A DNA stretch of 57,375 nt, counting the filler, from Sphacelaria rigidula (lineage: Eukaryota), in assembly GCA_964200075.2 (NCBI GenBank). It is 8 parts of 8 records of this genome, joined end to end, with 100 filler letters (N's around TTAATTAATTAA, not from the genome) between each part and the next. Parts side by side here need not be neighbours in the genome. Positions count along the whole stretch, not along the records: positions 14,371 to 21,455 come from CAXNAA020016569.1; 7 more parts are not named here. One strand, written 5' to 3'. The translations under genes were made by a program, and so were the position numbers. Each line of letters opens with the position of its first letter. The stretch's first letter is position 1. The notes under the pieces were generated by a model, which made no database searches, was not told the origin of the DNA, and worked only from the letters and a program-made list of their open reading frames with translations. Positions 1 to 53,240 of this stretch are shown here, one piece after another.

Positions 1-932
1 TTCCTACTCCTAATAGAGACACCTCCAACATTCTGGCGCTCATTACGGCGGAGGGAGGGTGGGGTGGGTGGCGTGGGTGGGGGGGGGGGGGATACTCATT
101 TGTTGCTCGCTTTAGTCGTTTGACCAGTGACCACGCATCCCTCGCGAGACGGGAAGCTGGCAAGGGAGAGGGCGGGGGGGGGGAAGAGTCACCGAATATT
201 GTAGTTCCCCTGAGTCCAGAAGTATCTTTGCCTGAGTCGTAGTATCAACGGCCCATGGGCATCCGTGGGCACCTGCGGTTGATCGTGGGTGCCCCAGTTC
301 AATACAATTTCATGAACTGGCATGTGGGCGCTTACAAAGGCGGCCCATGAGGAGTCCATGGGCACTCAAGGGTGACGCCAAGGGATGAAACACCCTGATA
401 GCGCGTGATAGCTCCGGAGAATAGACAGGTGGCGGTCTCACAAAATTATTTTCCACTGAACCGTGCGAACGAAACCGTTCCGGGTAACTGTGTCTGGGTA
501 TTTTTCGACCACCGGGAATTGAGTAAATGTTGTGGTCTCGCAGCGACATTTATTTATTGCGGATCCCGCAAACGGACACGATTTTTGTTTTTTAACTCTC
601 GTGTCGGTGTGCTCTTCAATCACTGGGGTACGAGTGCCGTGCATTTTTGAGGACTGACCCTTGCACATTCAGTGTGCTGGCGAGTCGCAGTCTCGGGCAT
701 CCTCCAGTCAACTGTATCCCCGCGCACTTCAATGAACTGGATATGTGGGCAACAGTGTTACGTTGAGCACGGAGATGTGTCGAAGGCGTGGCCATACGAT
801 ATCATTTGTTGTCAAGAGCTTTTTTCTCTACTTCGCAATACATTACAATACAGTCAGCTCAGTGGCATTTTTGGGCGGTCACATAAGCGACAACAAATTA
901 ACCGACAAAGCAGTGCCGAAAATCTTGGTGCA

Positions 933-1432
933 AGCTTCTGAATTGAAGGCCACTTATCATGTATTAAAAAAAACGTTCTTGTTACAAAGTGCATTTATAG
1001 TCCTTTTTCGTCGTTTTTCGCCCGAAACGAGGGCTAGGCGGATGTTGACTTCTTGAAATGACTTACCCTACTCGTTGCGACCGTTCCAGGGCACCTTCGC
1101 GTTTTCCGCACGTTGCAGGTTTGTTTTTGGCCAAACTTGCCCTTCCGATAACAAACGGTCAACTTATACAAAAAAAACAGTGACCCCCCTGTTATTTACA
1201 GTTTGACCGTCGGCGATTGAAAATGCAAACTTAGCCAAAACCAAACCAGCGACGTACGGAAAACGCAAAGGTGCCCTGGAACGGTCTCGACGGGTAGAAC
1301 TAGTCATTCCACGGTGCCAACATCCGCCTAGCCCTCTTTTCGGGCGAAAACCGACGAACAAGGGCCAAAAATGCACTTTTCAATTAAAACATGTTTTCTA
1401 TACATAAGAAATGGCCATGGATCACAAGAGCT
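933..1432. mobile_element. fold-back/MITE-like element with about 230-bp imperfect inverted arms
   Basis: About 933-1165 is the reverse complement of about 1198-1432, e.g. GAGGGCTAGGCGGATGTTG / CAACATCCGCCTAGCCCTC and GACCGTTCCAGGGCACCTT / AAGGTGCCCTGGAACGGTC. Ends approximate; no TSD resolved. Confidence 0.75.
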
Positions 1433-1913
1433 AATTCGTGATCGGTCAATCCCATAATTTTTCTTGTATGCTTTTGCGAATGAGGATAATGACGTTGCCA
1501 GCCGAGAAATCTAGGCGTAAACGCTGTACAGGCGTGTTTCGTCACTTACACCGCCGCTATTCGTTACATCGCCGTCCCGACGGTATCCGCACAGCCACGG
1601 CACGTGGGGGTGTCCGTCCATACCTCAAGCAGTCACCTACAGCAGTCAACTCGTCTTCAGTGAGGCCGACGGAAATACTTTCTGATTCGAGATTCGACTG
1701 AGAATTTGGTAACAACATCCTTCTGCCAGGCTTGAACATTAACCTGCTGCCGTCGTATGACCATGTTTGAATCTGTTCCACTTATTCATAGGTTGAACAG
1801 TACGACTGCTCCTGTGTGAGGTTCAACATATGTAACAATTTTATGATTCCAGATATGTGACTTTGGGACTACTTTGCAACGGCGTTTCGTGCGATGCTGC
1901 CGTCTGCCATCAG

Positions 1914-4900
1914 GTTGATATCCCTGGAGGGTTTTGCCGCGTTGCATAGTTTACGAGAGCTAGATGTGAGCCATAATGGAATACAGAGCATGTTGGGGTT
2001 AGTTTCCAACAAGAATCTGCGGGCTCTGAGAATATCACACAACCGCATTCGCCGAATAGAGGGGCTGGAGAAGCTCACGATCCTGGAAGAGGTACGAACG
2101 ACAGGTTACAGCCCACAAGTGTACTCAATAGACTCTCAGTATACACTATCTTCAGCATTCGCAAACACGGACTGCCACGAACCCACCTGTGTCAAGATAG
2201 GATCTCTTCCACGGGACAACGGATACGAGTACATATCGCGGGCGCCAAAGCCGAAAGCAGAGCTATAAATCGAACTGTCGTGTGTCATAATCTCCTCTCC
2301 GCGGGGACCAAGCAAAATATTATTATGGCTTCAAGGGCGTAGTGCTTGTATGCATATCAAATGATAGACACGGCAACTGCGGTAAATTACTCCCCTCACG
2401 CACTGCCTTCCCGTTGCCTTTCCGTTACTTCGGCAGGCTGACTTGTCGCACAACCTGCTGAGGACTAAGAGAGATATGCGAGCTCTCTCGCTAAATTCTG
2501 CCCTACGTCGACTTCGGCTCGAGGGCAACTCCTTCTGCAGTACAGGCGTCCCGGCTACTCAGAGTTTCGCGGTGTACATGCACCATCTCATGCCGGGAAC
2601 GACACTCCTGGACGGCACGCCATCCGACTCGGCGCTGATACCACCTCCTCCGCCGCTCTCAGCAGATACGGCCCACCACCACTACAATCAGCATCCCCAC
2701 CACGGTCACCATCGTGCACTGAGCACATCGCAGCAGCACATCGGCAAGCGGGGAAACGCAGCGTGTAGCGGGTCGCGAGACGACCTTAGCTTATCGCGAC
2801 GCTGGCGAGACACTTCTGTGATAGTCACAAACGGTCGTCAAATGTTGTCGGTCGAACGCAACAGCCAGCAGCAGGAGCAGCAACGCCACAAACAGCGATC
2901 CCAGTCTGCAGAGCGGAGCGGACGCGGCTCGCACGCTGCCACTTGGCCGACGACTGGAGGTGGTGGGCCCGCGGTAGATCCCGGGTCTTACGTAAAACTG
3001 CACTTGGCCTCTAGACGCAAAGAATGTGGCACTGGCACAGCTAACGGGGCGAGATCTTCCGCCGGCGCAGCAGGCGCGAGAGACGTCAGTCGAGACCGAG
3101 CAAACGCTGCAGTTGAGAGAAATCGGCGAAATACAGGGGCACAGTCCATGCGGGTAGGGGTGGGGGCGGGCATGGGGGCGGGGTATGTTCATCACCCGCC
3201 GCACACGGCACCCTGCGACGATCATCATCACCATGGAGGAGGAGGAGGAGGAGGAGGAGGAGGAGGAGGAGGGGGTCATGCGACAGCAGCGGCAGCCATT
3301 CACGGTGCTGGTGATCGCGTTGCAGACGGAACCGCTATGATCAGCAGGGGAAATCACCAGGTATCACTGCGCGGCGCGGGTGGTGGTGGTGGTGGTGGTG
3401 GTGGTGGTGGTGGTGGTGGTGGTGGTGCAGCTGCCGCTGCAACAGACGCGCCTCTATCTTCCTCTTTGTCATCTTACCACGGGCGATCGCGAGCAGAGCG
3501 GGCGGCAGCCCGCCGCCTGGCGTGGAGCCAGGCGAGATCGGAAGGACTCGTGGGAACAGCGACCTCAACGCCGGCAGCCCGACGGCGGAAAGACGTGCCC
3601 CCCCCCAGCCTTTCGAGAAAAAGTGAGTTCACCGCAGAAGGCGACAGGAAGAAGAGGGGATCTGGGAGCGCTAAGGTATCGCGTTCTTCTACAAACGCCA
3701 GGGTGGCGCTGAGGAAAGGTCATGCGACAGGGGAATCGACACCGTCGATCAGAGGGTCTCGCTCGCCAATGCAACGCTCCTGGCGGGGAAACGAAGTGAC
3801 GCAGCACACTACGGGCCCACAGGTAAGATCAGCGGATCTATGGGGCAAGCCGTATGCAAGAATTTAGCACTGTAGTTGGTTTCTAAAATTTGTCAAAGCA
3901 TAGTCTGCCGTGGATGTTGCCTACTACAGTGTACGCGTATAATCTTGTATGGCGTGGAGTCGATTGGTGACGACTCAAACACCCAGATACTTGGAGGGGG
4001 AATGCAATCGAGTGTTGATGCATCGGATCTACCGATGAATTACTCCTTGCGTGACGCCAAGCGAGTAGAGCATTGCAGGTGACACAAAGGCCTGGCACGC
4101 TATCTGGCCGCCATCGATGCCGGTCGTGGTTGATTATGACCAAGTTCCGCACAAGGAACAGTAGCATCGCAATTTCGCGCCTGTTCATCTCAGGAATACC
4201 TAGGATTAATCACTTTCTGGGGCTGATCACGCTGGTCAACTGAGATCTGCTCTTCGACGTGGCTCGAAAGAGGGCATGTGCGGTTGACTACATGGACCTG
4301 CAACATCTCGAGGGAGCTTGTCTTGTGTCGCACCCCAAACGACCGTGTTCACGACCAACCGACTCATCTCAGGCATAAAAAATGATCTCCGTCCAAACTA
4401 CAGGTAGGTTCGAGTCGAAATCGCTTCCGCCGTGGCGGTTCAGCCTTCACCGATCACGCAGACGGAGGAAGAGGATTCCTTCGACATGGCGCATCACATT
4501 CAGCGGGTACTAGTAGGAGTCAAGGGCGTCGACCGGCAAGCGTCGGCGGGCGGAAGAAGCGCCTGGGTGGAACCTCGTCGAAACATGCGGAAACTAAGGG
4601 CAGGAGGTGGACTAACGCTAGCACCTCATGGACTGGGGAAACCCGCGCGCGCGGCGGAGGTCGTGATACCCGCAGGCGATCACAAGGCGTGTTAAGCGGT
4701 GAAAAAACATCACATTTGAGTGGTGGCGGGGGAGAGTCGTATCCTTATTCGACTTCGCTCGGACACAGAAGTCGTCGAATCACGCGACCGGCGGCCCCGC
4801 AGGTATCCCCGTGGACACCTCGCGAAGATGCGATACCGAAACAGGATCGTCGCCGCCGCAGCCAAGTGCAGCGCGACGAAGATATTGAAATATTCTATGA

Positions 4901-6584
4901 GCAACGGCGGGATAACGGGGGGGGCGACAGAGGGGTAAGAGGAGGGCGCGGAGTAGGGGGAGGCAGAGGAGGAGGGATAGCCGGTGGAAGGGCTAGAGAC
5001 GGAGGGAATAGCGGATCGCCAGGGGCGTACCATAATGATCTGGGCTGCAGCGACGACGATGGAGGCGACAAGTCGGCGAACACCGCTGACGATAGGTCCT
5101 GCCAGAGAGTGCCCCCCTTCGTGTCACCACTGTCCCCCGCTGGAATTTTGCAGAGAGCCGCGGGTTCAAGATCTGCAATCGCGTCAGCGGAAACGATAAC
5201 TTCGTCGGCAAGGGAAGATGATGCCGGTGAAATTTTTCACGTCAACAGTGGTGAGACACGGGAGGCGGGAGTCGCAAGTCGACCGTACCAGGCCAACTTG
5301 AACGCAGAAGAGGGAAACGCCTTCGGCGTTGGTGGAGGATGGCGGCGGATGTCGTCGGACGTTGCTCCCATGGAGAACGAGTGGGAGACAAGCCTAGGGG
5401 GAAAGAGGGACGATAGCCCTCTTGATGTTCGCGCGTTTCATTCCACGGATGTCCAGTACCATCAGCTTGGGGCCGAGCGGGACACTAGATACAAAATCGG
5501 GGAAGAGGGGCCATCGCACAAGCCTTTCTCGTCGTACAGGATGATGCCCCAGTTCTCCGGTGACAGAAGTATGAGGGGTGGTGCCACCACCGGCAGCGCC
5601 GGCCGAGAATCTGGTCGTGCGACGTCTCCTCCTTCCGCTCGACCCACGCTTCGTGATCCCCTTCGCCATGTTTCCGTTTTGCGAGAGTTTGGTGGCGACG
5701 GGCAACAGGAACAACAGAACGCACAAAATCGGCTGGGCGTATCGCAAAAAGCGTCGCCCGGGAGAGATGAGGCGGGTGTTCGCAGGATGGAGAATGAAAG
5801 TATCCAATTTCGGGACGGGGGTGTGGTGTTGGGGGATGAGAAGGACGACGCGTGGGTTGATGACGACGACGAGGTCGTGGAGCGTTGGAGCTCTACCCTG
5901 AATACAGAAGGGGGCGCTCATGTAGAGCGTTCCCATTTGTGGTATGATCGCGAAAAAGGGCAATATCCCGAAGGGGGTGGCGTGGGAAGCACAAAAAGAG
6001 TCAGCAGTATGGGCGACGTTGACCAGGGCAACGGCAACACGGGCGAACTCGACCCTGGAGCCTCTAGCAACGGCGTCGACAAGGTTGGTGCTGGTGCTTC
6101 GACTGCTGCTGTCACTGTAGATGATGACGATATTGGCGACGCATACGGTCTTGTCGCTGTTTTCGATGACGAGAAGTTTGCAACACCAGGTCAGCGACCG
6201 TTGAAAAATGACCCTGGCGGATCGAAAACAGTGGACCCGCCCATCCTCACCTGGAACGATGACACGGAGGTCAGTGATAACGGAGACCAGGCGATTTCTA
6301 ACATCGCCAATGCTCCCGAAAAACTTCCGAAAAAGATCGAGGTCACAATTGAACCCCCCCCGTCGCGCAGTCCCGATGATGCCATGGTGCGAACCTTGGC
6401 GGAACAGTTGCTGGACGCCGAAGTCGCAGAAGATCAGCCCGTAAACACAAAGGAAGCTTCCGGGGGAGGGGTCAGGAGCGGAGGGGGTGGCGGAAGGTGG
6501 GGGGCGGACGCTACACTGGAGAGTGAGATCATGGATGTGCTTGCGTCTATGGTGGGAGGCGCGTCTTCGTCTGCTCCTGGTTGA
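1914..6584 (+). CDS. SDS22-like leucine-rich-repeat protein with LRRcap and a long low-complexity/disordered C-terminus (5'-partial, spliced)
   Basis: Exons 1914-2091, 2437-3822 and 4404-6584 are all GT-AG and join in phase 0. They read LxxLxxLDVSHNGI, LRALRISHNRIRRIEGLEKLTILEE|ADLSHNLL, LRRLRLEGNSFC, then LRRcap-like FAVYMHHLMPGTTLLDG. The last exon is open from 4404 to TGA 6584. Upstream exon(s) not identified. Confidence 0.8.
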
Positions 6585-7085
6585 GGAACGCAGCAAAAGG
6601 ACTTCCTTCCCGCGCTCCAGCATGCAGTCAAGAGTAGGGGAGCGAGAGAGAGGAGGAGGGGGCATTGTATGTATATGTGTTTTCCTGCTATGTGTGGTAT
6701 TTCAGTCTCATTCTCCTCCTGTGGTAGAGTCTACGCGTAAATTGTTTGTTCTGCATGCACGCATGAATTTTGCGATCCCAATTCCTCCATCTATTTCTCC
6801 CTTTACCCCGGTTCTATTCATCAGTGGATTATTCCTCACACATCAAGGTCGGCACGCAGCTTTTGCCGCCCCGGCCCGTGTTTACCCCCCCCAAAAAAAA
6901 AAAAAACGTTTTGCGATCTGTGCCTCACGACTCCGGAAAGTCGATCGCGACTGAAGCTCGAAACATTAGAAGGATTGATACAATAATATATACTCTAGTA
7001 TGTTATTGTATTATTATACAAGCCGCACGGGACCCGGGGCTGCGCCCCGGTCCCGTCCGTCTTTTTCGAGGGTCTCGGTATTCTT

Positions 7086-7185
7086 NNNNNNNNNNNNNNN
7101 NNNNNNNNNNNNNNNNNNNNNNNNNNNNNTTAATTAATTAANNNNNNNNNNNNNNNNNNNNNNNNNNNNNNNNNNNNNNNNNNNN
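7086..7185. other. artificial 100-bp contig spacer N44-TTAATTAATTAA-N44 (also 14271-14370, 21456-21555, 28640-28739, 35824-35923, 43008-43107, 50192-50291)
   Basis: An identical six-frame-stop linker appears seven times between segments of 7084-7085 bp. Confidence 0.98.
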
Positions 7186-10100
7186 TTGTGGTTGGGGGGC
7201 GGGGGGGTGGGGGGGTGGGGGGGGGGGGTGGGGGGGGGGGGGGGGGGGGGGGGGGCTGTCGCGGCAACAACAATATAGCATGCAGCAGTATTGTGTGTGT
7301 GCATATGTGCGTATGGGTGTAGTGAAACTGTCCAACATGCTATTCGTCAACAGTCTGAAATCTACCGCCCCACACGCTCGTGCGGTACTGGTACGCTTTT
7401 TACGCCCAACAGTTCTCTCGGCGGGGTAGTGTGTTGCTCTTCAACCGGAGTGTTAATTGCCCCGCAAATGCAGAAAACAGCAGCTGGCACGATTGTTGAA
7501 GCGAAGCAAAACTCACCTACACCGCGAGGTCACGGAAGTTGACGGGCGATCTCATTAACTTCAACCGAGAAAACCCTTATCGCGTGCGTTCGGCAAATAA
7601 ACCAAAGCGGTCTGTCCGGTGTTATCGCTTTAATTTAGAAGCTCCGTTCCTCTCGGCTTTCGTCAATCATGCAACTGAACATGAACCATCTGGAACCCGC
7701 GCGGCGTGGAACAGGATCTTTGTCATGTGGTGTATGCAACTGCTCTTCAGACCCGTGGTCGAAGGGTAGTTCTTACGGACGACTCTATCATCAGGAACCT
7801 CGAGTTTGAGAGACCTCAAATAGCAGGTGTTCAAGTTTTGCCCATCTCCTGAAATTCACGACGAATAGTTCCCGCGGTTAACGCTAGCCCTGAAATCCTC
7901 CCGTTCTCTTGTCTTTGCATGACAAAAGAAGAGCTGGTGGCATGATGATTCGAGGAAATTATGTCCAGTGTTTTTGTCGTAAAGAGATTGTTCAAGCACA
8001 AGTCAAAGAGGGGGATGTTACGGGCGATATCGGCCGTATGGGTCAGAGGCATTTCGGAGTACGTAATATGCCGCGTGCAGTATGCGTGTTCTACTTGTTG
8101 TAGTATATGGGCGCCTTACTCTAGTCAGTGCTTCCAAGCGCACCCTCGTCGCACACAACTACTGTAAACTGTGCAGATAGCAGCAAAGGGGACAGCAGAG
8201 CAGACCGATATTACAGCCGATCCTCCTGAAGGCATCGTATCTCTGGGCCACCACTGCGCATGCACTGAACAAATGAGTCCTACGCTACTTGACTAAGTGC
8301 ATCGAACTCAACAAGGCAAGTGTTGTGGTAGCTACGTGGGGCATCGCACAGGGGCATTTGCGGCCTGTATTGTACAGCTCAACCCCTGCGATTCTTGGTA
8401 GTGTCATGGATGTGCAAACACCCGTGTCGAATATTATACCTGAATGGCGGCAGTCAGTCCCTGAACTGCGCTGAATCAGCACCCTCAAGCGATTCTCAAA
8501 ACATTCAGCGGTCTCTTGAACTGAGATCGGCGACGAGCCGGCGAGCCGCAGATGGACACCATATTTTTTCGGTGCTGCGCAACTTGATGGCTTCAAGTTC
8601 GACGCCCTGCCAGTACACACTTGCCTTGGAACACTATGCACCCCCCTTGACCGACTGTTCCCGGTCCGCCTTGGGTTGAGGTTTGAGTTGGGTTTGTCCC
8701 AAAGGCTTGACGAAGTCTGTGCGTACCACCACGGCGTTTTTGAGCGCAAAATCCATGAAAACCCGCCTCCTTGCATGCACAGCTTTTATTATCTGACAAT
8801 CGATGCGCAAGTCATCAAGTTTCACTCTGTTTCCATGCAATTTCCAGGGTTTGCTGTGTCACCTTTAACTTTATCGGGTAACCACTGATGGAGAAAGGAT
8901 AACCATCATCGAATCATCCTGCTACCCAGTATTCCCGTGTAGATTGATGAGATGATGCATCACAATAGGGCCCTCATTCTTCGGCGGGAATAATTCGGCG
9001 AAGTTGAATTTCAACATCCCCCGGCAGTGAAAAACCCTTAGATCGCGAAGGTAGTCCATCTGGATCGTGCTTACATTTTTCAGGTAAAATCGATGTCGAT
9101 TCAAACAGATGATCTGCTGTCGCCGTCCAAGTACCCAAGAAGAGGTCGATTGATCCCTGGGTACACCCAGGTCGACGGCAATCCGATCTGTCCATAGCAG
9201 GCGATCCGGTTTCTCGGAAACCCTTCCTGCCGGCGCCAGTACTCCTCCGCTTCGTTCTCCACTGGATTGGATCTCGGACCAGCTCCGAAACTAATATCTT
9301 GCTGGTTGCCAGCCATCATCGATCACGTTAGATTGGCATCCTTGGAGGGTGAAAGTCCGGACGAATAATGTCAAGATAATAACGCACGGTTTCTGCCACG
9401 ACTTTTCAAGTTAGAAGAAAAATGTCGACAGTGATCTCGCAGATAAAACCTTCTGACTCCTGGATGAGCATACCAACAAAATGCGCAAAATTTTCCTAAA
9501 TGTCCAATGTTGCGGCTATACCAACCTCCGCACTTACACCATTTATATCTTACCCATCGCCTCTTTTCCCTCCCGTGGGTGGTTCCTATCACACCAGAAA
9601 CTTCCTGTATTTGAAACGACATGTATGTCTCTATTGTCAGGGTGCGCCATCACCATGCCGTATACTACATGAACTGACACACTACTACATCGATATACAC
9701 TAGTAGTGGGACAGGGAGGGGGTGGGGGGCTGTCGCACATATAGCTCGTGTGAACGCAAAACACTCCACTAGAAGCAAGAGCACCATGGACGAACAGAAC
9801 AAGAGAAATAGCTCAGGATAAATAACAAAACGAACAACAAACAAAGGAGGAATCTGTATAACCCCACACACAAGTATAGCTGTCTGAAAATATACCCACT
9901 CCGAATCACACTCTTCTTGCCGCCAAACCAGACACGACTCAACTCCTGTCTTGGGCTCGGAGAGATGACAATTCTCGAAACATTAACACTCCCACTTCCT
10001 GGATGAGAATCGTGAGCAACAACAACCCTTCTCAAATAACGGCTTCTAACAAATCAACTATAAGATGTATCACGCATTGTAGGCACCCACATATCATTCA

Positions 10101-13532: not shown

Positions 13533-14371
13533 CTGTGCTCGATCGTTCACAACACACAAATCGGCACGGACACAAGGTAGGAGCACCGACCAACGGACAG
13601 GGGAACTTTCACACAAGTTTTACAGTTGTAAGGCCTCGATATTTCAAGCACTGTCTCTGAAACCAAATCAGAATCAACAGATCACACATCACACGAAAAC
13701 TTGAAATAAAGAACAAAAGAGGGGGGATGGGAAGAAAAAAAAGACGAGGATAAACGAAGGACACGTGTTGAAATGTGTCGTCCGATAAGACTATCCTCTA
13801 CAACTCCTTCGTGCTTACAATACAGAGCGGGTCGACAAGCGGCGGATGTTCGAGTTATCGTTGCTCCTGTACACCCGATGTCGTTCATCACACTCTCTCA
13901 TGAAACGCGTTTTCCTGGTGCTGCAATCATTCGTGCCGCGTATGATAATATGTGCAGAAGAATTAAACCGTCGAGACAGACTAGCAGCAAATCTTCGTGC
14001 GGGTATATTTACACACGCAAGGGATACATACATTAAAATACTGCGGATACCGTTCCGGGGGGTCTTCATACACTACCCATACAATACACCCACGCTCGGG
14101 TAGGGGCCAACTGATACCATTCATTAACGCCAATCTAGGCGTACGAACCGCAATGGGTTGACACTCTGACAGCTGCTGACAGCATAGTTACTATTTCTTG
14201 ATATTTTCTTTTTCCGATTTTTATCCATCGAGCCAGAAACGAAAGGATAGCCAGACAGTGGGAGGGGGGGNNNNNNNNNNNNNNNNNNNNNNNNNNNNNN
14301 NNNNNNNNNNNNNNTTAATTAATTAANNNNNNNNNNNNNNNNNNNNNNNNNNNNNNNNNNNNNNNNNNNNG

Positions 14372-14803
14372 GATACCGCACAACACCGCCCGCTGAATAA
14401 GAGATATCGGTCGATGCGCAAAGGAGCTGCCGCTCGAGAACTGGCACGTGAACACTCAGCGCGGTTTGTTGTGACAGGCTATAGCCTCCTCCCGCGTCCA
14501 CAATACATGCAGTCTTTCCACGGGAAACGATTGCCAAAAGGGGCGTATTTCTGGTATAAGGCTTTGGATTCACTGTGGTGGTTGGGAAAAATTCATCTGG
14601 TCGACCCTGCATCTGACCACTCCTACTTTATCCGTTTTCTTGATGACCCGAGCCCCCTTAAGATTCGCTTGGATGATGCGTACTACACCGAGGAGCCGAC
14701 CGCTCGGAGGGGATCCTGGTGCCTCCAACGACACGACCAAGGCGAACTCGAAACAGCCGTTCTACAGAACACGGACACCGCTTGGGATGCAGATGACTCA
14801 TGA
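14372..14803 (+). CDS. C-terminal end of a probable Ty3/Gypsy LTR-retrotransposon polyprotein, ending in a PWWP/Tudor-like domain
   Basis: Frame open from the contig edge to TGA 14803: DTAQHRPLNKRYRSMRKGAAARELARE..LPKGAYFWYKALDSLWWLGKI..YFIRFLDDPSPLKIRL..GSWCLQRH. This resembles, from memory, the post-integrase tail of brown-algal Gypsy elements. It is followed by a repeat-rich 3' region and an LTR-like segment. RT and integrase core are not in this contig. Confidence 0.65.
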   Translation, partial: DTAQHRPLNKRYRSMRKGAAARELAREHSARFVVTGYSLLPRPQYMQSFHGKRLPKGAYFWYKALDSLWWLGKIHLVDPASDHSYFIRFLDDPSPLKIRLDDAYYTEEPTARRGSWCLQRHDQGELETAVLQNTDTAWDADDS

Positions 14804-15185
14804 TGCCGCATCCGAGTCTGCTTCCCCATTCACCTTGCGTGGTGTACCGCGTTCGAGTCGCTTGTCTCGCATTGTAGAGTCGTTGGACAACCATGTGTTC
14901 CCCCCCTTTCCCCCACTTCATTTTTTTTTCGTACTGATTAGCCCTGCACTTGTAGCGGTTGATGTATGCCGGTGTGTCGTGTTTGGTATTTGGTCTTTCG
15001 TTTTTGTATTCTCTATTCTTTGCTTTCGTGTTGCGTCTTGTTTTTTTTTTGTTGCTTTGGACCCTGTGTTTTTTTTTTTACTTCGATTGTTTTTTGCTTT
15101 TGTTCTTGTCTTTGTTCTATATATTTTGTTTTGTCTTCTTTTCTTTTCGCCTCGCCCTTTGTGTTCGATCTTTCGTGTCCAATGG

Positions 15186-15276
15186 GTATTTTCTTGGGTA
15201 TTTCTGGGTACTTTCTTGGGTATTTCTGGGTACTTTCTTGGGTATTTCTGGGTACTTTTCTTCGGTATTTCTGGGT
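15186..15276 (+). repeat. 22-bp tandem repeat (TTTCTTGGGTATTTCTGGGTAC) about 4 copies
   Basis: Directly visible tandem copies downstream of the pol stop codon. Confidence 0.9.
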
Positions 15277-15504
15277 TCTTCGGGCGAAGTACAAGTGACG
15301 ACCGTTCCATTCCTGACCCTGAGTCTGGAACCTTGAACCTCCGTCCTCCACGCCGTACATTCACAACCATTCCGTCCACCGGAACAGTTGCCACGAGTTG
15401 ATTCCCTCTTCAATTGTTTTTCGTTGTATACCCATGTTGTATTGCTTTGTTATTACATGGTCTCTATCGTTGATTTGTTTTGTTTCGAAGGACAAGTTTC
15501 CAGA

Positions 15505-21271: not shown

Positions 21272-21555
21272 GTGAGGTGCACCGTGATGAGTGACTGGAG
21301 CTGCCGGTATGTCAACATGCCACATTAATCATTGTCGGTACCCACACACACACTTTCACCAATCCCGAGACGAGTAAGTACCCCCCCCCCTCCCCATGGT
21401 TAGACACCCATGAGGCAGTGTAAAATCGTGGCTGTCTCTGGAAGTGGCGATACCANNNNNNNNNNNNNNNNNNNNNNNNNNNNNNNNNNNNNNNNNNNNT
21501 TAATTAATTAANNNNNNNNNNNNNNNNNNNNNNNNNNNNNNNNNNNNNNNNNNNN

Positions 21556-28108: not shown

Positions 28109-29507
28109 ACTACATGTCGATTGTCGATTCCCATCTTCGTGAAGGCGAGTTGCAGGCTCCAACCCGAACTGAGAGTAAACGCGGGATCCTGCAAAAATGG
28201 GAACGACATATTTTCTACGGGAACAAACTGAGGTCGAAATCGTGTACGATATTGCAACTGATACCCTCGAAGCATACTCTTGAACCCTTCAAAGGTACGT
28301 TTGATGGGTACCAGTTGCAGTATTATAAACAGTTGGTTCAAGGTTACGTTCGGCGAGTGCCAGTTGCAGCACCGCTTCACCCTTTTGGGACCGGGCCTCC
28401 AGAACGACCAATGAGGCTGGTTAGGAATGACGTGTCTGGCGTCTGCACGAAACAGTGGCGTGTTGCTGGAAATCCGTGTATGTAACCGCAAGACCGAGAG
28501 TTTCATCCAATCTTTTTTCAGGTGCAGGGTGCGCATTAGGTAGTGTACATCTGATGTAGCAAGCAGTATGGGTCGGGGCAGAGAGGTGTCAACAGGATGC
28601 GGCGACCGGCGGGCCTGCCGCCACTTGTGGCTTTGGATGNNNNNNNNNNNNNNNNNNNNNNNNNNNNNNNNNNNNNNNNNNNNTTAATTAATTAANNNNN
28701 NNNNNNNNNNNNNNNNNNNNNNNNNNNNNNNNNNNNNNNAAGGCCTACTGGTTATCTTGCATTCGGATGACGGCCTACAATGCGTTTGCTTCATTTTCTG
28801 GTATCGCCACTTCCAGGGACAGCCACGGCTTATCCATTACCTCGTGGGTGTCTCACCATTCACACACTACGTAGCACAACAATCCCACGCCACACATGAT
28901 GTAGCTCGACTACCATCATGGTAACCGCAACAAAACGCAAGCGCGCGGAAAAAAATCGGTAACCGGGTTGCCTAGCATACGCAGTGAACGGCGTGTTTTA
29001 TAGCGTCATCGCCAACCGATGCCAACCCCCATTGGGGATCCGCCCCCACAATTTTCCAAGGGGGGGGGGGGGAATCAGGCGTGCGCACTTGACGACAGAA
29101 AACAGAGGTTTCCTGTATTTCGGATGACGAGATAGATCAGTGCGCGCTTTTTGCTTACTAGGCCTTAGTCTGCGTGTGTTTCATGTTGATAATTCGTCAT
29201 TTGCGATGTTTTCATTCACAAATCTGCTTTGCTGCAGGCAAAGTTATACTGCAGGTGAATCGAGCATGAATACGTACCGTTCACCGATTTTACCCATGTC
29301 TTGGATCTTTTCCCCATAGCTTTGATGTAAAAAGTTGATGTCTTGTGGCACGTACATTCAACGTCACACGCTTGCCGCATTTGAAGCACAACACTACTCT
29401 GGTGTGATGAGCTCTTGGGATAGCTTGAGCACCAGTACCTTTAGTACACATGCCCTTTGCCGTGCAAGTGTACCTGGGTGAGTAACGACCCACTCGATAG
29501 CGGTCTT

Positions 29508-35100: not shown

Positions 35101-35936
35101 GGAATTACCCCCTTCCCATCCCACATTATGGGTTGCTGGGCGTGTTGTGCTACTATTCTGAGAAATGAACGCCTGAATATGTCCTATACTGCATTTTTAC
35201 TCGGAACTTGAGAGGGGGGAGGGGGATGTACTCATCATTAGGCATGACGCGGTCACAAAAAGACTGAACCTCGCCACAAGGGGGAAGAGCAGCCCGGGGG
35301 GGAGGGGAGTTCGTCAAGGATCATGAACAAACGCGCGAATACGGATATGTGCCGCGCGTGTGTACAGAGTTTTACCAGAAATATCATACGTCTTTTTTCC
35401 CAGAACAATATAATCCCTTCGAGAATTGGTAGTAGTCATTACATCGGGTAGTGCGTCCTCCGATCCGGGGTGTCGCTGCCCGTACGTTTATTTGTGTCTG
35501 TGTGTCATAAATATTTTTTTTCTGGTCGGTCGAGTACCGCTAGTTTTTTTTTTTTCCTCGTGTTCGTGCTATCGTCGTCTCCGATCATGCGTTCAAGGTT
35601 GGGTCAGCGCGCTGCATTATCACTGCCGTGTTGCACCACAAGCTACAGCACATTTGATAAGGCTATTTCCTGTGTTGCCCCGCGTCGTCGGCGGGACGTT
35701 TTCGCGCTGAGGGACATTCCTTGACGAAGGCAGGTCGCACCGTACGGGCGGTGTATCGCGGGGGGGGAGGGGGGGGGGGCTTCAAGGGATAGAGACGTTG
35801 ACGAACAACCCACTCGGCATGTGNNNNNNNNNNNNNNNNNNNNNNNNNNNNNNNNNNNNNNNNNNNNTTAATTAATTAANNNNNNNNNNNNNNNNNNNNN
35901 NNNNNNNNNNNNNNNNNNNNNNNGTAGTATATCTTT

Positions 35937-38193: not shown

Positions 38194-39133
38194 ACCCCGA
38201 CGCCGGATGCCGGGTGGGGCTGGTGGTAGCCGCGTTCACTCAGACGTTNNNNNNNNNNAAAACCCTGTTCCCTCTGTGGTTACTGCCCCCCCCCCCCCCC
38301 CCCCCCATCACTTGCCGCCGAACAGCGTATATGCTGTGTGTGTCGTGCTGTACCTCTGTGCCAAGTTTGAAGCCAGATAGTGTGGACACGGTGGAGAAAT
38401 TCACAAAGTAACGCTTGAAAAGTGGAAAATGCAGTACTTAGCCGTTGAAACATACATGAGGTGAACAAAGGGGTGATTTACCGCCGTCCTATTTGCACCC
38501 CTTTGTTCACCCGCCATCCAGTACGATGGGAACTAGTGCAGGGTCCGCAAACGCGTCGGGTGTTGGATGCGATAGCTCACCCTCCGATGGTTTCTCGTGC
38601 TAATGGTGTGTACAGCAAGAAGCATGTAATTCACTTTGAGTTACCCTTATCTGTGGGAGGTGAACCGTTTGTTTTTTGTTGGTGAGAACTTGCGCATCCC
38701 CTTTCATGGTAGGAATCAGCGACGGAACTGCGTAGTACGGTGGACAACCGAGTTGCGTGCACGCTCATGGACAGTGCATGCAGTGCAAAGCTGCACGTTG
38801 CTGGAGTCCTTTTCATGTCGCATTGTAAGCAGAGAGAACTGATGGTCCTGGGCTGTCTGCACTGCACGTTGCCCGCTTCTCTTCTATATCCTCCTGTACG
38901 AAACACGCACACACGCACTCAAGGCACTGCTTGCAAGCAGTGCAGATAGTACGGACTGTCTGTACTGTGTACGATTCACGAATTTCACTGTCTTTTTTCG
39001 ATCGAAAGCTTGAAAGTTCCCCTAGACCCAACTCGAGAAAAATGAGCGAATCTCGCTCAAATCGATTCCACCGCCCCATTTTTTCGATCGAAGGAAAAAG
39101 TGAGAAGAAACGCCCTTGTAAAAAATATGTAGA

Positions 39134-41033: not shown

Positions 41034-43152
41034 TGTAAGCACTCCCTTACTCCGTCTACTTTCGTCGAATTTTCGTCGTTACTGACATCATCACGCTTCC
41101 AACGACAAAAACCAGATCTGCTCAGAAAGACCGTATCTCCCGAGGTTCAAACTCGTAACGTTTTCGTTCTAACTTGCGGGCGGTGTACCACTTTGCCACC
41201 TGCGCGTGGTGGGGTACTCCCATATATATTGCACCACATTGCCAAGAATGAGCAACAACCCACAAAAGTTATGAGATGAAGAAACGAAGTTCCACGTGCA
41301 TGCTTCTCTTGTGCTCTGCACTCTGAGAATGATTAGTTCTACAACACATCTACCGCCGGCACAACAGCATTACCCTTTCCCTTCAGCGCGGCGTGGAGTT
41401 GGTGGGGTGGTTACGCTGGTGTAAAGTCGGAGATCTGATGTACGATGACATGAGCGGCTGGCGGTTCGATTCTGAAACCCTTTCGTACATGAAAATCTCG
41501 AGGTCATTCTCTTGGAAGTGGTCTACTCACGCTTGCCCCCACTTTGGTGACACCCAATCTTCGGCAAAGCAAACATCGTGGACAATCATGAGGGCTCATG
41601 CGCGGTTTCGTGCGTGGTGTTCTCTGTAAATTGTTGACACCTACAAACGTCTCAAAAGTAGACGTTTTTCGGCGGAGGCGTGACGACAGGCGAAGTAGAG
41701 TGGATTCTCTACCGCAGATGAAGTAACTTACGCTTGTCCACAACTGTTTATTTACTCGGCAGTCACCGATCAATTCTCCCCCAGAGTGTGCTGTAGATCT
41801 GCTCGATCTTAGATCAGCAACGTCCTGTAATTTAATCTTGTTGAATTTTTTTCCTGCGGTTTCAGTATCTAACGAACAATAGTATATTTTTGCTCTAGTC
41901 ATTGGGGCTGGTTGTGGGTAGTCAGAAGACCCGCGCTGTCGATGCTGGTATAGTTACGCTGTACGCACGAGTAGTAGCCGCCCAAGAAGTAATGAAAAAA
42001 CGGATTGCGCGGTCTGGGCCCTACAGCTCCACACGTACTTTTATGGTAGACTTTCGAGTGACGCCGGGATAGCCCCTCCTCAAACCAGCCTAGAGCTCTT
42101 GCCTGGTCCGACAAAAACTCAGCGTGCTCTGCCCCGGCTTTGTGGGGACGTACCCGCTGTAGGACTGGTAATGACGCTGTTAAAACACGCCACTCACCAC
42201 GTAAGCTAGGGAACCAGGCTACCGTCTTATTTTTCGCTCATACGTTTTTTTTGCGGTAAGAATGATGATGTTCGAGCTAGATCGTATTGTGCGGGGTGGG
42301 AGAACCTCAATTCCGCGCACAGGGGATGATCATACTTGTTGTTGTGTTGTTGTCTTCACATTAAAAACCGGTTGTTGTGTTGTTGTCTTCACATTAAAAA
42401 CCGTTCCGATATCTGCGCGGTACATTCGTACTGTTCATCTAATGCGGACGCCTTCCGTGGTCACAGGCTAGCAAAATACCAAAAAAACAAAAAAGAGCTA
42501 AATTAAAACTCACGAAACGCGATACAAGCAAAACAGGGGTAAATTTCAATTTTCAACTTGGTTGTTGTCTCAGGCTATTCCAGATCCGGCATTAGATTTT
42601 TGTGTCAAAAAACTGTCTCGGTTTTCGTAACACTTTTTAAAAAAGAAGCAGAACTTTTCGAAAAACTGCTCAAAACGTGACCCCATTATTTGGAGTACAG
42701 GGTACTACACTGAACACAACGCAATTCTGCAGTGTTTTCTATTCGGAACCTGAAGGCGGACTGTATACAGTATGCATCAGCTGCTTTCTCTTGTTGCAGT
42801 AGTTACGTGTGGGAGACACACTCCACGTGCACAGCTCCCACAGAGAGATACGCACACCTATATCTCCCAGAACTTCGCCGAGTAAGCAAGCATGGACCCA
42901 TCGGCGGGTAGTACGTACCCAGCGCTGTCGAGCACAGTGGCCATCACTCGCAAGGTGCGCGGGTGTTGTCGCACGGTCGGAACGCGGACCGTCTACGATC
43001 AAGAGCANNNNNNNNNNNNNNNNNNNNNNNNNNNNNNNNNNNNNNNNNNNNTTAATTAATTAANNNNNNNNNNNNNNNNNNNNNNNNNNNNNNNNNNNNN
43101 NNNNNNNTAGGCCGACAAAAACGTCATTGGGCACCATCGCTGAAAGTGTGGG

Positions 43153-50191: not shown

Positions 50192-51167
50192 NNNNNNNNN
50201 NNNNNNNNNNNNNNNNNNNNNNNNNNNNNNNNNNNTTAATTAATTAANNNNNNNNNNNNNNNNNNNNNNNNNNNNNNNNNNNNNNNNNNNNGGAAAAGCA
50301 CTGTTTTAGGCTTGAGCCTCATCTCGAAGTTAAACCTCAATTCTCACAATTTGTTGTTAATGTTGTTATCAATCAGGGGATTGCGGGCCATTGTTATCTC
50401 CTTTCCTCTCGTTCACTGAGCACCTGGCCGTGAACACCTGACTGTGATCTGACCCGTGATGGGTGTGGAGCTGGCTAGACACGATTCGATGACGGCGGTA
50501 GGTGTACTGATAGTGAACAGCGGGTGATGATGGCATTATCATCGTGTCTGATTTTAAGCCAATAAAACGCACGTACATGTGTTGCCAGTTAAAGCTTTGG
50601 GCGATATATGCAAGTTGGCTGCTTGTACTGCGCTAGCGTATTTTTTCTCTCTCTGTACGATGCGGTGCAACCCTCCAGTGCAAGTTTTGGCATCTGCATT
50701 GCAGCGCCCATATATGCTCTCAGAAGCGTGATGCGCGTTCAACGATTAATGTGGACGAGAATAGATGGAGGGGTGCGGACTTCAGTAGCTGAAGTACGGC
50801 AAAAGTCTCTACAAGTTCTGCAACCGATGCGCTGTCATCCTCTCAAATGAATTTTTAAAAGTAACGAGAGTCGTCTCCGAGTGTGGATATTCAACGACTC
50901 AGTCGTCCGAGGCTTGCTCGTCGCACATGGAGCACACACGGAAAACGTGGTTCTCTTTTTCTTTATCTCGATTTGTCGATTTGTTGGCGCGGACTGACAC
51001 CCGTACCAGCCCCCAACAAGGAACAAACCATGAATATAGTCTGAGGTAAACCCTCTCATGGTTGAACAGTCGGGCAAATGTCTACTGCGAGAATTGCCGC
51101 GCATCGTGCCCATCTTCCGCACCTTCCTAAAGGCACACACGAACGAAAATTAAGGACTCCGCTGTGA

Positions 51168-51430: not shown

Positions 51431-51895
51431 CCTGTGTCAAGAGGTGTAGTGTCGAGGTCACAAAGCTCTGTATCTCCTTAAGTTTCGAGTGGCACTCGCA
51501 CCTCTCACTCAAACACGTATACGCACTGTACTCCTCTGCTACGTACATTGGGCTGTTTGTCGTTCACAGAGATTTTAACACCCCCCTTCGCATTGGCTTC
51601 GATCTCATACGACGAAACCTCCTCCTTACACCCGATCAAGCAGATATTGACCTTCTTTCACGAGAATCCGATGGATGCCATACGAATCTAGATCTAGATA
51701 TGTATTATTCTATTGTTCTACTTCATTCACGAACTCCCGTTCCCGCCTGCTGCCTCTCCATAGGAACCAGCTGACTTGCATGTCACTTGTCCGTGTATCC
51801 GGTTTCATCTGCGTATTCTAAAGTTTACGATGCTCCTCTCGTTTTCACCGCCATACCGAAACCCTCGACGCGATCGTCCATTCAAATGTGAACAG

Positions 51896-53240
51896 CTGGC
51901 ATGGGATATTTTCGTGGCGGTACTCATCGTCTACGGCTGCGTGAACATCCCGCTGCGCATTGGATTCGATCTAGACTCGACCATTGGACAGGTGGTCGTA
52001 GATGCGGTTATCGATGTGGTGTTTTTCGCCGACATGGTGCTGAGCTTCCGTACGGCGTATTTCGCTGGCGATGGGGACACGATCGTGGATCCCAGCGATA
52101 TTGCGTGGCGATATCTGAAAGGTCTGCCCAGTACAGTGCAGCACAATACAGCGCAGCGTGGCACAGGGGTCTCCCTCGAGATTAACTGTAACACATGTAT
52201 ATTTAGTGTAATACATGTGCATGAATCGGCCAACGTGTGTGATGTTTCTGTGTCCTCGTGTGGGCGAAAAAGTAATATGTGTGCACGCCGAAAACGCGTG
52301 ACGGGAAACATCCCTTGTCGCACGGATTGTATGTTTCGAGATCAGTGCTCTCGGGGCGTAACCTACGAGAACACGTGTGGAGTCCGTCTTTGCGATGGAC
52401 ATATTTCTTTCATCGATGAGCATGTGCTCGGTTGCGGTCCAAATGTCCAAATGAGCCAAGAACTACTGCGTCAAGACATCCGTTTCTTTCGCTAGGCATG
52501 GCCCAAGCACAACGCGGAACCTTGACGTATGCTTCCTGTGTATCAACAGGCGACTTTTTCTTAGATCTGTCCTCAACCGTACCCATCGATTTGGTGCTGC
52601 TGGCGACGGGGAATTCGGATGGGATCTTGCGCTCGACCAAGCTACTGCGAACCTTGAGGCTTTTGCGCTTGGCAAGGTTGCTCAAACTGTCGAAAGTACT
52701 TGATAAAAAGGACGACGACGTGGGAACCATGATGCACCCTAGCTTGTGGGCTCTGATAAAGATGCTGGTCATGCTGGCGTTCATCTCGCACATCATGGCC
52801 TGCACGTGGCACTGGCTGGCCACTCTCAGGTGATACCGCTCTGAAATATTCAACCTTTGTACATTAAAAAAGTACAGAAGCTTTTCAATTGGCGTATATT
52901 TTGCAAGGTTTACTTCGGCAATTTCTCCACGTGGGATGTACCGTACGGACACCACGGTAGTTGGCATCTGCTGCTTCTGCCATGATGAGTCGGAATTATC
53001 ATTACCATCCAAACCATTGCCGAACAAATGGAGCTCCCCGGGTCCCGTTCAAATGGTTACCGAGTGAACCCTGTCTCCCCATTCCCATCGAAGCAACTAC
53101 TGCGCAAAAACTGACGTTCCCGTGAATTCTCGTTACCATCCAATTAAATATCATGCAAATGTATTGCTACCGATTGCTGGACAGGAAAAAAACAAAATGA
53201 GCAGTCAGTAATATCACTTTCATTCAGTAGTAGGTCAGTG

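Follow-up and report, generated by a model that had tools for sequence, protein, structure and literature searches.

Where transposons select their own insertion sites, the clearest examples are reader domains fused to the integrase, and almost all of those known are chromodomains. A 57,375-nucleotide stretch of Sphacelaria rigidula DNA (hereafter the window, meaning the whole stretch analysed) raises the question of whether a second kind of reader has been added at this position. At 14372..14803 (+) the window holds the tail of an open reading frame (ORF), 143 codons followed by a TGA, from the polyprotein (pol) of a Ty3/gypsy retrotransposon. The first-pass annotation, made from the sequence alone, had taken the end of this ORF for a PWWP- or Tudor-like chromatin reader that might serve in place of a chromodomain. 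The domain is the extreme C-terminus of a Ty3/gypsy pol, as seen in relatives, the window copy itself being cut at 14371; its predicted fold is a Tudor-like barrel.

The window consists of eight pieces of ~7.1 kb joined through artificial linkers (N44-TTAATTAATTAA-N44), and adjacent pieces need not be genomic neighbours. The third piece begins at 14371 with the ORF at its very start, the preceding linker (14271..14370) cutting its 5' end. This truncation is an artefact of window assembly, and the preceding piece lacks the upstream part of the gene. Because the ORF is cut at 14371, any integrase joined to the window copy is not visible, and the first-pass annotation had rightly placed it outside the visible sequence. 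The frame from 14372 is stop-free for 143 codons, with the TGA at 14801-14803, and takes in all of the C-terminal extension found behind the chromodomain of relatives. The peptide on which the first reading had rested, LPKGAYFWYKALDSLWWLGKIHLVDPASDHSYFIRFLDDP, is encoded at 14531-14650 (+) and corresponds to residues 54-93 of this frame. The end then assigned to the feature, 14735, agrees with residue 121 as the predicted end of the barrel, but the ORF does not end at FLDDP as had been stated, since 50 more codons lead to the TGA. When two longer relatives were compared with the window by tblastn, a single copy was detected, at 14372-14800.

To what fold does this tail belong? An AlphaFold model built with a 72-sequence alignment was obtained at a mean predicted local distance difference test score (pLDDT) of 87.8 and a predicted template-modelling (TM) score of 0.80. 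The predicted barrel spans residues 54-121 (14531..14734, +), with five strands at 59-63, 69-77, 84-89, 92-99 and 116-121 and block pLDDT values of 90-97, and carries the conserved blocks FWYK, LWWLGKI, RFLDDPxP and GSWCLQxH. Ahead of it the model places an N-terminal helix at residues 9-27 (14396..14452, +), with invariant R16, A20, R22, L24 and R26, followed by a short strand (37-39) and a helix (42-48) at 14480..14515 (+), where Y37 is invariant. In a Foldseek search of the PDB the top rows were all Polycomb-like (PCL) Tudor domains, those of PHF19, PHF1 and MTF2, at probability 1.00 and expectation values (E) of 2.5e-3 to 2e-2, with 26-33% identity over 47-52 columns, a root-mean-square deviation (rmsd) of ~2 Å and TM scores to the target of 0.55-0.67. 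Independently of Foldseek, VIA comparison with 48,161 representative chains gave 19 at Z of at least 5 and none at Z of at least 8, a level below which a score can reflect merely a common arrangement; they include a TraI domain (6.5), Spindlin-4 (5.7), the UHRF1 tandem Tudor (5.5), the RDM15 Tudor (5.4) and PHF19 (5.3). Extended Tudors, Agenet domains and TDRD3 also appear in the VIA lists, and most of the top 50 rows are Tudor-type readers. When VIA was applied to Foldseek's best 997 chains, Spindlin1 repeats came first (Z 6.0-6.6) and PHF1/PHF19 scored 5.2-5.5, the latter pair showing the highest identity in that comparison (23-25%).

Sequence comparison pointed in the same direction at lower strength. 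The PHF19 Tudor domain took the top three places when the family profile was searched against PDB sequences (E 0.25), and was met at E 1 with the window protein alone. No Pfam family matched the window protein at E<=10, and among the 72 relatives the matches were all sub-threshold: SH3_VIII-1_N in nine, Agenet in six (best E 0.0018), PWWP in two and Tudor_2 in one (E 0.14). The best feature scores in the ESM Atlas (0.78 and 0.76) both belonged to unrelated families and were uninformative. The structural models, with scores that are middling, support a Royal-family, Tudor-like barrel nearest to the PCL Tudor domains and captured by no curated model. The Royal-family reading of the first-pass annotation is borne out to this extent: an SH3-like barrel, whose absence would have spoken against it, is predicted confidently by AlphaFold, and Foldseek finds Tudor structures nearest.

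The same cannot be said of the PWWP reading. In PWWP domains strand 2 opens with a P-W-W-P-type motif, and a C-terminal helical bundle lies behind the barrel; known PWWP motifs vary. The first-pass annotation had seen the spacing of the PWWP consensus reproduced here, a correspondence that none of the tools bore out. The corresponding motif of this family is S-L-W-W-L-G, in which the W-W pair is invariant and both proline positions are leucine throughout. A true PWWP would explain the W-W pair with which strand 2 opens, the G-K-I after it and the phenylalanine on strand 3, as well as the weak Pfam matches noted above (2 of 72 relatives, best E 0.12) and one PWWP chain, that of Shuguo (6kco, bound to single-stranded DNA), which reaches a VIA Z of 5.4 in a tie with many Tudor domains. 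Against this, the window protein has no match to PF00855 at E<=10, the two motif prolines are absent (L-W-W-L), and PWWP chains stand at Foldseek ranks 44 and 50, far below the Tudor domains at ranks 1-32. Nor is a confident C-terminal helical bundle predicted: residues 126-129 and 138-142 form the only helices behind the barrel, both short, and the block pLDDT drops there to 68 and then, after residue 130, to 46, while the helical extension of the domain lies N-terminal to the barrel, unlike the PWWP definition. Membership of the PWWP family, as first proposed, is very improbable, and we treat the domain as Tudor-like.

The breadth and pattern of conservation were established by database search. 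A word-based search retrieved a 324-residue "unnamed protein product [Sphacelaria rigidula]" (P0002), whose C-terminus is 90% identical across the whole query, and a second longer relative of 423 residues at 74% identity. Against 1.84 billion representative proteins, phmmer found 268 relatives at E<=1e-3, of which 99 were at <=1e-10 and 7 at <=1e-30, and in the longer matches the domain is C-terminal. Twelve well-preserved family members, with 39-72% identity to the window protein, share 29 invariant positions, among them W61, K63, W69, W70, L71, G72, R88, F89, L90, D91, D92, P93 and P95, as well as Y105, G114-Q119 and H121. The same blocks are prominent in the 72-sequence alignment, which includes many decayed copies, and conservation of the motifs is, judged from these alignments, far beyond chance. 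The window copy has a serine (DDP-S-P) where nearly all relatives have a glycine; the serine is common to the Sphacelaria protein, which is also the nearest neighbour of the window copy in the domain tree (support 100/94). Among the sequencing-run matches listed to part of the stretch (20 rows), none was RNA. Only a 143-codon tail is present in the window, and many of the relatives in the databases are pieces of degenerate copies, as would be the case if a chance resemblance had arisen in a decayed, non-functional remnant. However, 268 relatives with strongly conserved blocks and a confident fold, together with intact ORFs (1636 and 2386 residues) that have the domain at their end, make such an origin scarcely credible.

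These intact ORFs were found outside the protein databases. No polyprotein of more than 1365 residues carrying the domain was met in the protein search, and full-length elements were found in metagenome contigs instead, which were scanned with two conserved peptide patterns; 292 stretches matched and 6 encode a relative. In one of these loci (L001), a 1636-residue pol comprises RVT_1, RT_RNaseH, Integrase_H2C2 and rve, with the domain at its end, and the ORF preceding pol carries a YbiA-type NADAR domain (PF08719, E 1.8e-52; L001 1382-2998). In another (L002), a single 2386-residue ORF (190-7347) runs from NADAR (PF08719, E 1.9e-45) through RVT_1, RNase H, H2C2 and rve to the domain at its end. 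A third locus (L003) has a 598-residue ORF that continues from the integrase to the Tudor-like domain in one frame, and upstream of the domain the 779-residue database protein P0004, which is 54% identical to P0003 across it, carries Integrase_H2C2 (E 4.7e-14) together with rve (E 2.2e-8). The Ty3/gypsy order of reverse transcriptase (RT), RNase H and integrase (H2C2 and rve) is found in L001 and L002, and its integrase part in P0004 and L003. Complete relatives run from NADAR through RT, RNase H, integrase (H2C2, rve, GPY/F), chromodomain and basic helix to the Tudor-like barrel, the SH3-like GPY/F region after the rve core having been recognised by eye. The first-pass proposal of a Gypsy-type polyprotein whose C-terminal end is in frame with an H2C2 and rve integrase thus holds in P0004, L001, L002 and L003, where the ORF is contiguous with a retroelement integrase. 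NADAR is present in L001 and L002, and the N-terminus of the window copy lies outside the visible sequence; from these relatives, the window element would belong to a NADAR-carrying brown-algal Gypsy lineage.

Two further features of these loci were observed. In L001, 4-5 tandem copies of a ~78-nucleotide GC-rich unit lie at 886-1272, upstream of the NADAR ORF, and no terminal direct repeats were found within its 9.1 kb. Positions 1001-2000 of L003 and 1-1000 of L004 represent nearly the same element in different metagenome records, differing at 7 of 1000 bases.

Is the barrel a substitute for the chromodomain, as first proposed, or does it accompany one? Pfam Chromo was detected at E 0.003-0.005 in P0002, P0003 and P0017, below the curated cutoff. 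When the 38 relatives with at least 60 residues upstream of the domain were searched with a hidden Markov model of the chromodomain region, it was found in frame in 15, partially in 3 and not at all in 20. Three of these 20 still align to L002 over the chromodomain coordinates, several others look, by eye and without a count, like frame-shifted readings of the same DNA, and P0019, P0029 and P0034 are clearly different proteins. AlphaFold predicts, for residues 130-180 of P0002, a helix together with three strands (block pLDDT 88-96). Foldseek matched this model to the chromodomains of MPP8 (probability 1.00, TM to target 0.64-0.69, 31-32% identity), Oxpecker (probability 1.00, TM 0.70, 27% identity) and Swi6 (probability 0.99, TM 0.47, 25% identity), and its C-terminal part to the PHF1/PHF19 Tudor domains, with no match to the model at E<=1e-3. 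The relatives therefore carry, as judged from these models, a chromodomain fold directly upstream of the Tudor-like domain. Its cage retains the central tryptophan (H-W-K-G), has a leucine at the third aromatic position and is not conserved at the first. Because relatives carry a chromodomain directly upstream, the barrel is an addition to it and not a replacement, and the notion of a different solution from the classic chromodomain is not supported.

If the barrel is an additional domain, what might it bind? In PHF1, as far as the available text of PMC7492083 describes it, the cage is formed by W41, Y47, F65 and F71, with D67 and S69 contributing, and a leucyl patch beside it by L38, L45, L46 and L48; PHF19 has Y80 at the position of PHF1 F71. 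Residues of PHF19 were mapped to the window protein by HMMER profile alignment, using the residue roles given in that source. Of the cage residues, Y56 (PHF1 Y47) corresponds to W70, F74 (PHF1 F65) to F89 and the polar D76 (PHF1 D67) to D91, all three invariant in the family, while W50 corresponds to A64 (alanine, glycine or serine in the family) and Y80 to an invariant P95. The leucyl patch, L47, L54, Y55 and L57 in PHF19 (PHF1 L38, L45, L46 and L48), corresponds to W61, L68, W69 and L71. The aligned cage and patch residues W61, L68, W69, W70, L71, F89 and D91 vary little or not at all, and the domain therefore probably binds through the face that Polycomb-like Tudor domains use. No part of the domain is better conserved than this cage-and-patch face, but its cage is only half aromatic; the pattern supports a conserved ligand-binding surface for which methyl-lysine, another peptide or nucleic acid are candidate ligands. 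Because only two of the four cage aromatics are kept, the ligand need not be a PHF1-type trimethyl-lysine; the other invariant aromatics, W61, W69 and Y85, could rebuild a cage.

A surface of this kind admits a role away from histones. With the same fold and position, the domain might bind nucleic acid or stabilise the intasome, acting as an extra SH3-like integrase C-terminal domain helped by the basic helix. The incomplete cage is in keeping with such a role, as are the invariant exposed tryptophan and lysine on strands 1 and 2 and arginine on the N-terminal helix, and the tied structural neighbours, which include the single-stranded DNA-bound PWWP (6kco, Z 5.4), KOW domains and the TraI domain (Z 6.5). 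On the other hand, the matches of highest identity (24-33%) are the histone-reading PCL Tudor domains, the usual SH3-like GPY/F region is already present after the rve core (by eye), and the domain adjoins a chromodomain, itself a chromatin module. We consider a nucleic-acid or intasome role unlikely, if well short of negligible.

The reading that we prefer is that this Gypsy C-terminal accessory domain acts, in tandem with the chromodomain, as a reader and chromatin tether, which by analogy with known readers is on balance probable. In the proposed mechanism, the integrase would carry the chromodomain and the Tudor-like barrel as one tandem reader, the barrel using the face employed by Polycomb-like Tudor domains with its cage remodelled. 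By tethering the pre-integration complex to some feature of chromatin, the pair would bias the insertion sites of new copies, a role that chromodomains play in chromoviruses. Ectocarpus is reported to lack H3K9me1/2/3 and H3K27me3 and to have repeats associated with H3K79me2 and H4K20me3 (PMC12477816, Genome Biology 2025, cited here and below from its available text). A classical chromodomain would find no ligand in such a host, and for this reason the tandem-reader model is plausible.

Several observations weigh against it. More than half of the relatives with upstream sequence (20 of 38) show no in-frame chromodomain, and the window copy is cut at 14371, so that linkage to an integrase is visible in relatives only. 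Foldseek gave no PDB match at E<=1e-3, no VIA Z reaches 8, the E of 0.25 for the family profile is weak, and the Pfam models for Tudor, Agenet and PWWP all stay below their cutoffs in the window protein and the 72 relatives. Aromatic residues are missing from two of the four cage positions of the PHF1 type, A/G/S64 standing for the tryptophan and P95 for phenylalanine or tyrosine, and MTF2, short of just one of those cage aromatics, with a serine at the PHF1 F71 position, is already a weak binder in the account available in PMC7492083. Finally, the conserved tryptophan- and lysine-rich surface (W61, K63, W69 and K73) would suit nucleic-acid binding equally.

A tether of another sort would have the barrel dock on a non-histone partner, either a host chromatin protein, methylated or unmodified, or, through the arginine-rich helix, the acidic patch of the nucleosome, in a tethering akin to that of HIV integrase by LEDGF. 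The remodelled cage, with tryptophan in place of the hydrophobic patch, and the prominence among the top VIA matches of Spindlin and extended Tudors, whose peptide ligands vary, are compatible with this idea; no candidate partner is known, however, and on present data it is indistinguishable from histone reading. We hold docking of this sort to be distinctly unlikely.

A more specific form of the tandem-reader model, set in brown algae as hosts reported to be without H3K9 and H3K27 methylation, would have the retained degenerate-cage chromodomain and the added barrel, its aromatic surface rebuilt, read a repeat mark specific to brown algae, such as H4K20me3 or H3K79me2, and send new copies into DNA that is already silenced, with the barrel passed on to integrase-less proteins by possible host capture; taken as a whole, this proposal is speculative and probably wrong in some part. 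If the tandem-reader model is true, stramenopile retroelements would assemble multi-reader modules, and these would offer a handle on which marks make an insertion site safe where, by report, H3K9me and H3K27me are lacking. If the domain is only a structural or DNA-binding appendage, the result reduces to the routine annotation of a lineage-specific integrase tail.

The barrel was also encountered outside pol. Two proteins, P0029 (828 residues) and P0034 (612 residues), have it at their C-terminus without integrase or chromodomain, behind coiled-coil-like and Arg/Ser-rich regions, and resemble L001-L006 only in the C-terminal domain. In the domain tree both are nested in the retroelement clade, sister to P0018 and beside the L002 pol (support 98/95). 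They could have arisen by host capture, belong to a non-autonomous derivative, or be gene models of chimeric make-up. P0048 (626 residues) ends in a tandem of chromodomain and Tudor-like domain, its N-terminal 430 residues having neither a Pfam family nor similarity to the retroelement loci. P0019 (373 residues), in which TIMP and WSC domains precede the Tudor-like domain, is probably a gene model running into a transposon fragment.

Downstream of the stop codon, a T-rich non-coding region extends over 14804..15400 (+) and contains a 22-nucleotide tandem repeat at 15183-15280. A T-rich low-complexity stretch after the pol stop recurs in the window (14900-15400), L001 (8204-8400) and L003 (1798-2000), with a GTATTTC-like motif repeated in all three, and window 14804..15400 is probably still part of the element, its limits being undefined. 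No purine run of at least 8 was found after the stop in the window, L001 or L003, and the 3' flank in the window, which has only the 3' side of the element, neither resembles the other loci nor recurs elsewhere in the window, and shows no long terminal repeat boundary. As for the remainder of the window, its seven linkers (7086-7185, 14271-14370, 21456-21555, 28640-28739, 35824-35923, 43008-43107 and 50192-50291) each have a stop in all six frames, and a separate N10 gap lies at 38249-38258. An open frame at 51764-52492 (+) has a weak Ion_trans match at the curated cutoff (E 1.1e-5) and may be an exon of an ion-channel gene. Open frames of 493 and 732 residues at 2386-3867 and 4386-6584 (+), in the GC-rich first piece (58% GC), have no Pfam family. 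Ion_trans was the sole Pfam match among the other large ORFs of the window, and tblastn detected no further copy of the element there.

How does this arrangement compare with systems already described? PHF1, PHF19 and MTF2 Tudor domains, readers of H3K36me3 and H3tK27me3, share with the window family a five-stranded barrel and the block G-x-x-x-x-x-K/R...L-[WY]-[WY]-L-G-K-I...F-x-D-D. In contrast with them, the window family has lost two cage aromatics, has tryptophan in place of the leucyl patch, and possesses an N-terminal helix-strand-helix extension and a conserved GSWCLQxH last strand. The PCL Tudor domains are fused to PHD fingers, whereas the domain described here is fused to a retrotransposon integrase, and no score between them is significant. 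Spindlin repeats, at the VIA Z of 6.0-6.6 given above, align over 63-69 residues with an rmsd of 2.4-3.0, but Spindlin has three repeats and the window family a single barrel, with identity of just 13-16% and a middling Z.

The PWWP domain of LEDGF/p75, which tethers HIV integrase, represents a Royal-family barrel carried on a host protein and bound non-covalently. In the window family the reader would instead be encoded in cis, and it is predicted to be Tudor-like, not PWWP. Chromoviruses (MAGGY, Tf1 and those of plants), as far as the sources at hand describe them, have a reader at the integrase C-terminus that is thought to direct integration, and in this they resemble the window family; unlike them, the family has a second predicted Royal-family reader after the chromodomain, and a chromodomain without the third cage aromatic.

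The closest comparisons are found among brown-algal elements. Four Gypsy lineages have been described for Ectocarpus, three of them with a C-terminal chromodomain and one of these, exemplified by Gypsy-12_Ec32, also with an N-terminal NADAR domain; those with a chromodomain are placed outside both chromoviruses and Chronos (PMC12477816). Gypsy-10_Ec32, which has a homologue in Tribonema minus, ends in a C-terminal Tudor domain and is, according to its authors, the first transposable element reported with one (PMC12477816). Apart from that paper, full-text searching yielded no Tudor domain on a retrotransposon integrase, and the word is absent from a 2025 brown-alga centromere preprint and a 2026 DAM-retrotransposon preprint. 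Like Gypsy-10_Ec32, the window family has a brown-algal Gypsy pol that ends in a Tudor-type reader. It is set apart from it by description, in that Gypsy-10_Ec32 belongs to a lineage apart from those with chromodomain or NADAR and its Tudor domain matches CDD cd20401, whereas the window-family domain matches no Pfam model. Because the family has both NADAR and a chromodomain, we infer, from descriptions compared only, that it represents the NADAR lineage rather than Gypsy-10. The domain may be the published Tudor itself or may already be drawn in a published figure.

With the Gypsy-12_Ec32 lineage the window family shares NADAR at the pol N-terminus, a chromodomain after the integrase and occurrence in stramenopile or marine sequences. 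The available text on that lineage describes only a chromodomain at the C-terminus and makes no mention of the ~140-residue domain behind it; a two-reader integrase module of the kind proposed here would be undescribed. The principle of a Tudor domain on a Gypsy element was thus already published in 2025, and what would be new here, measured against the available text of PMC12477816, is a second predicted reader behind the chromodomain, in a lineage where only the chromodomain had been reported.

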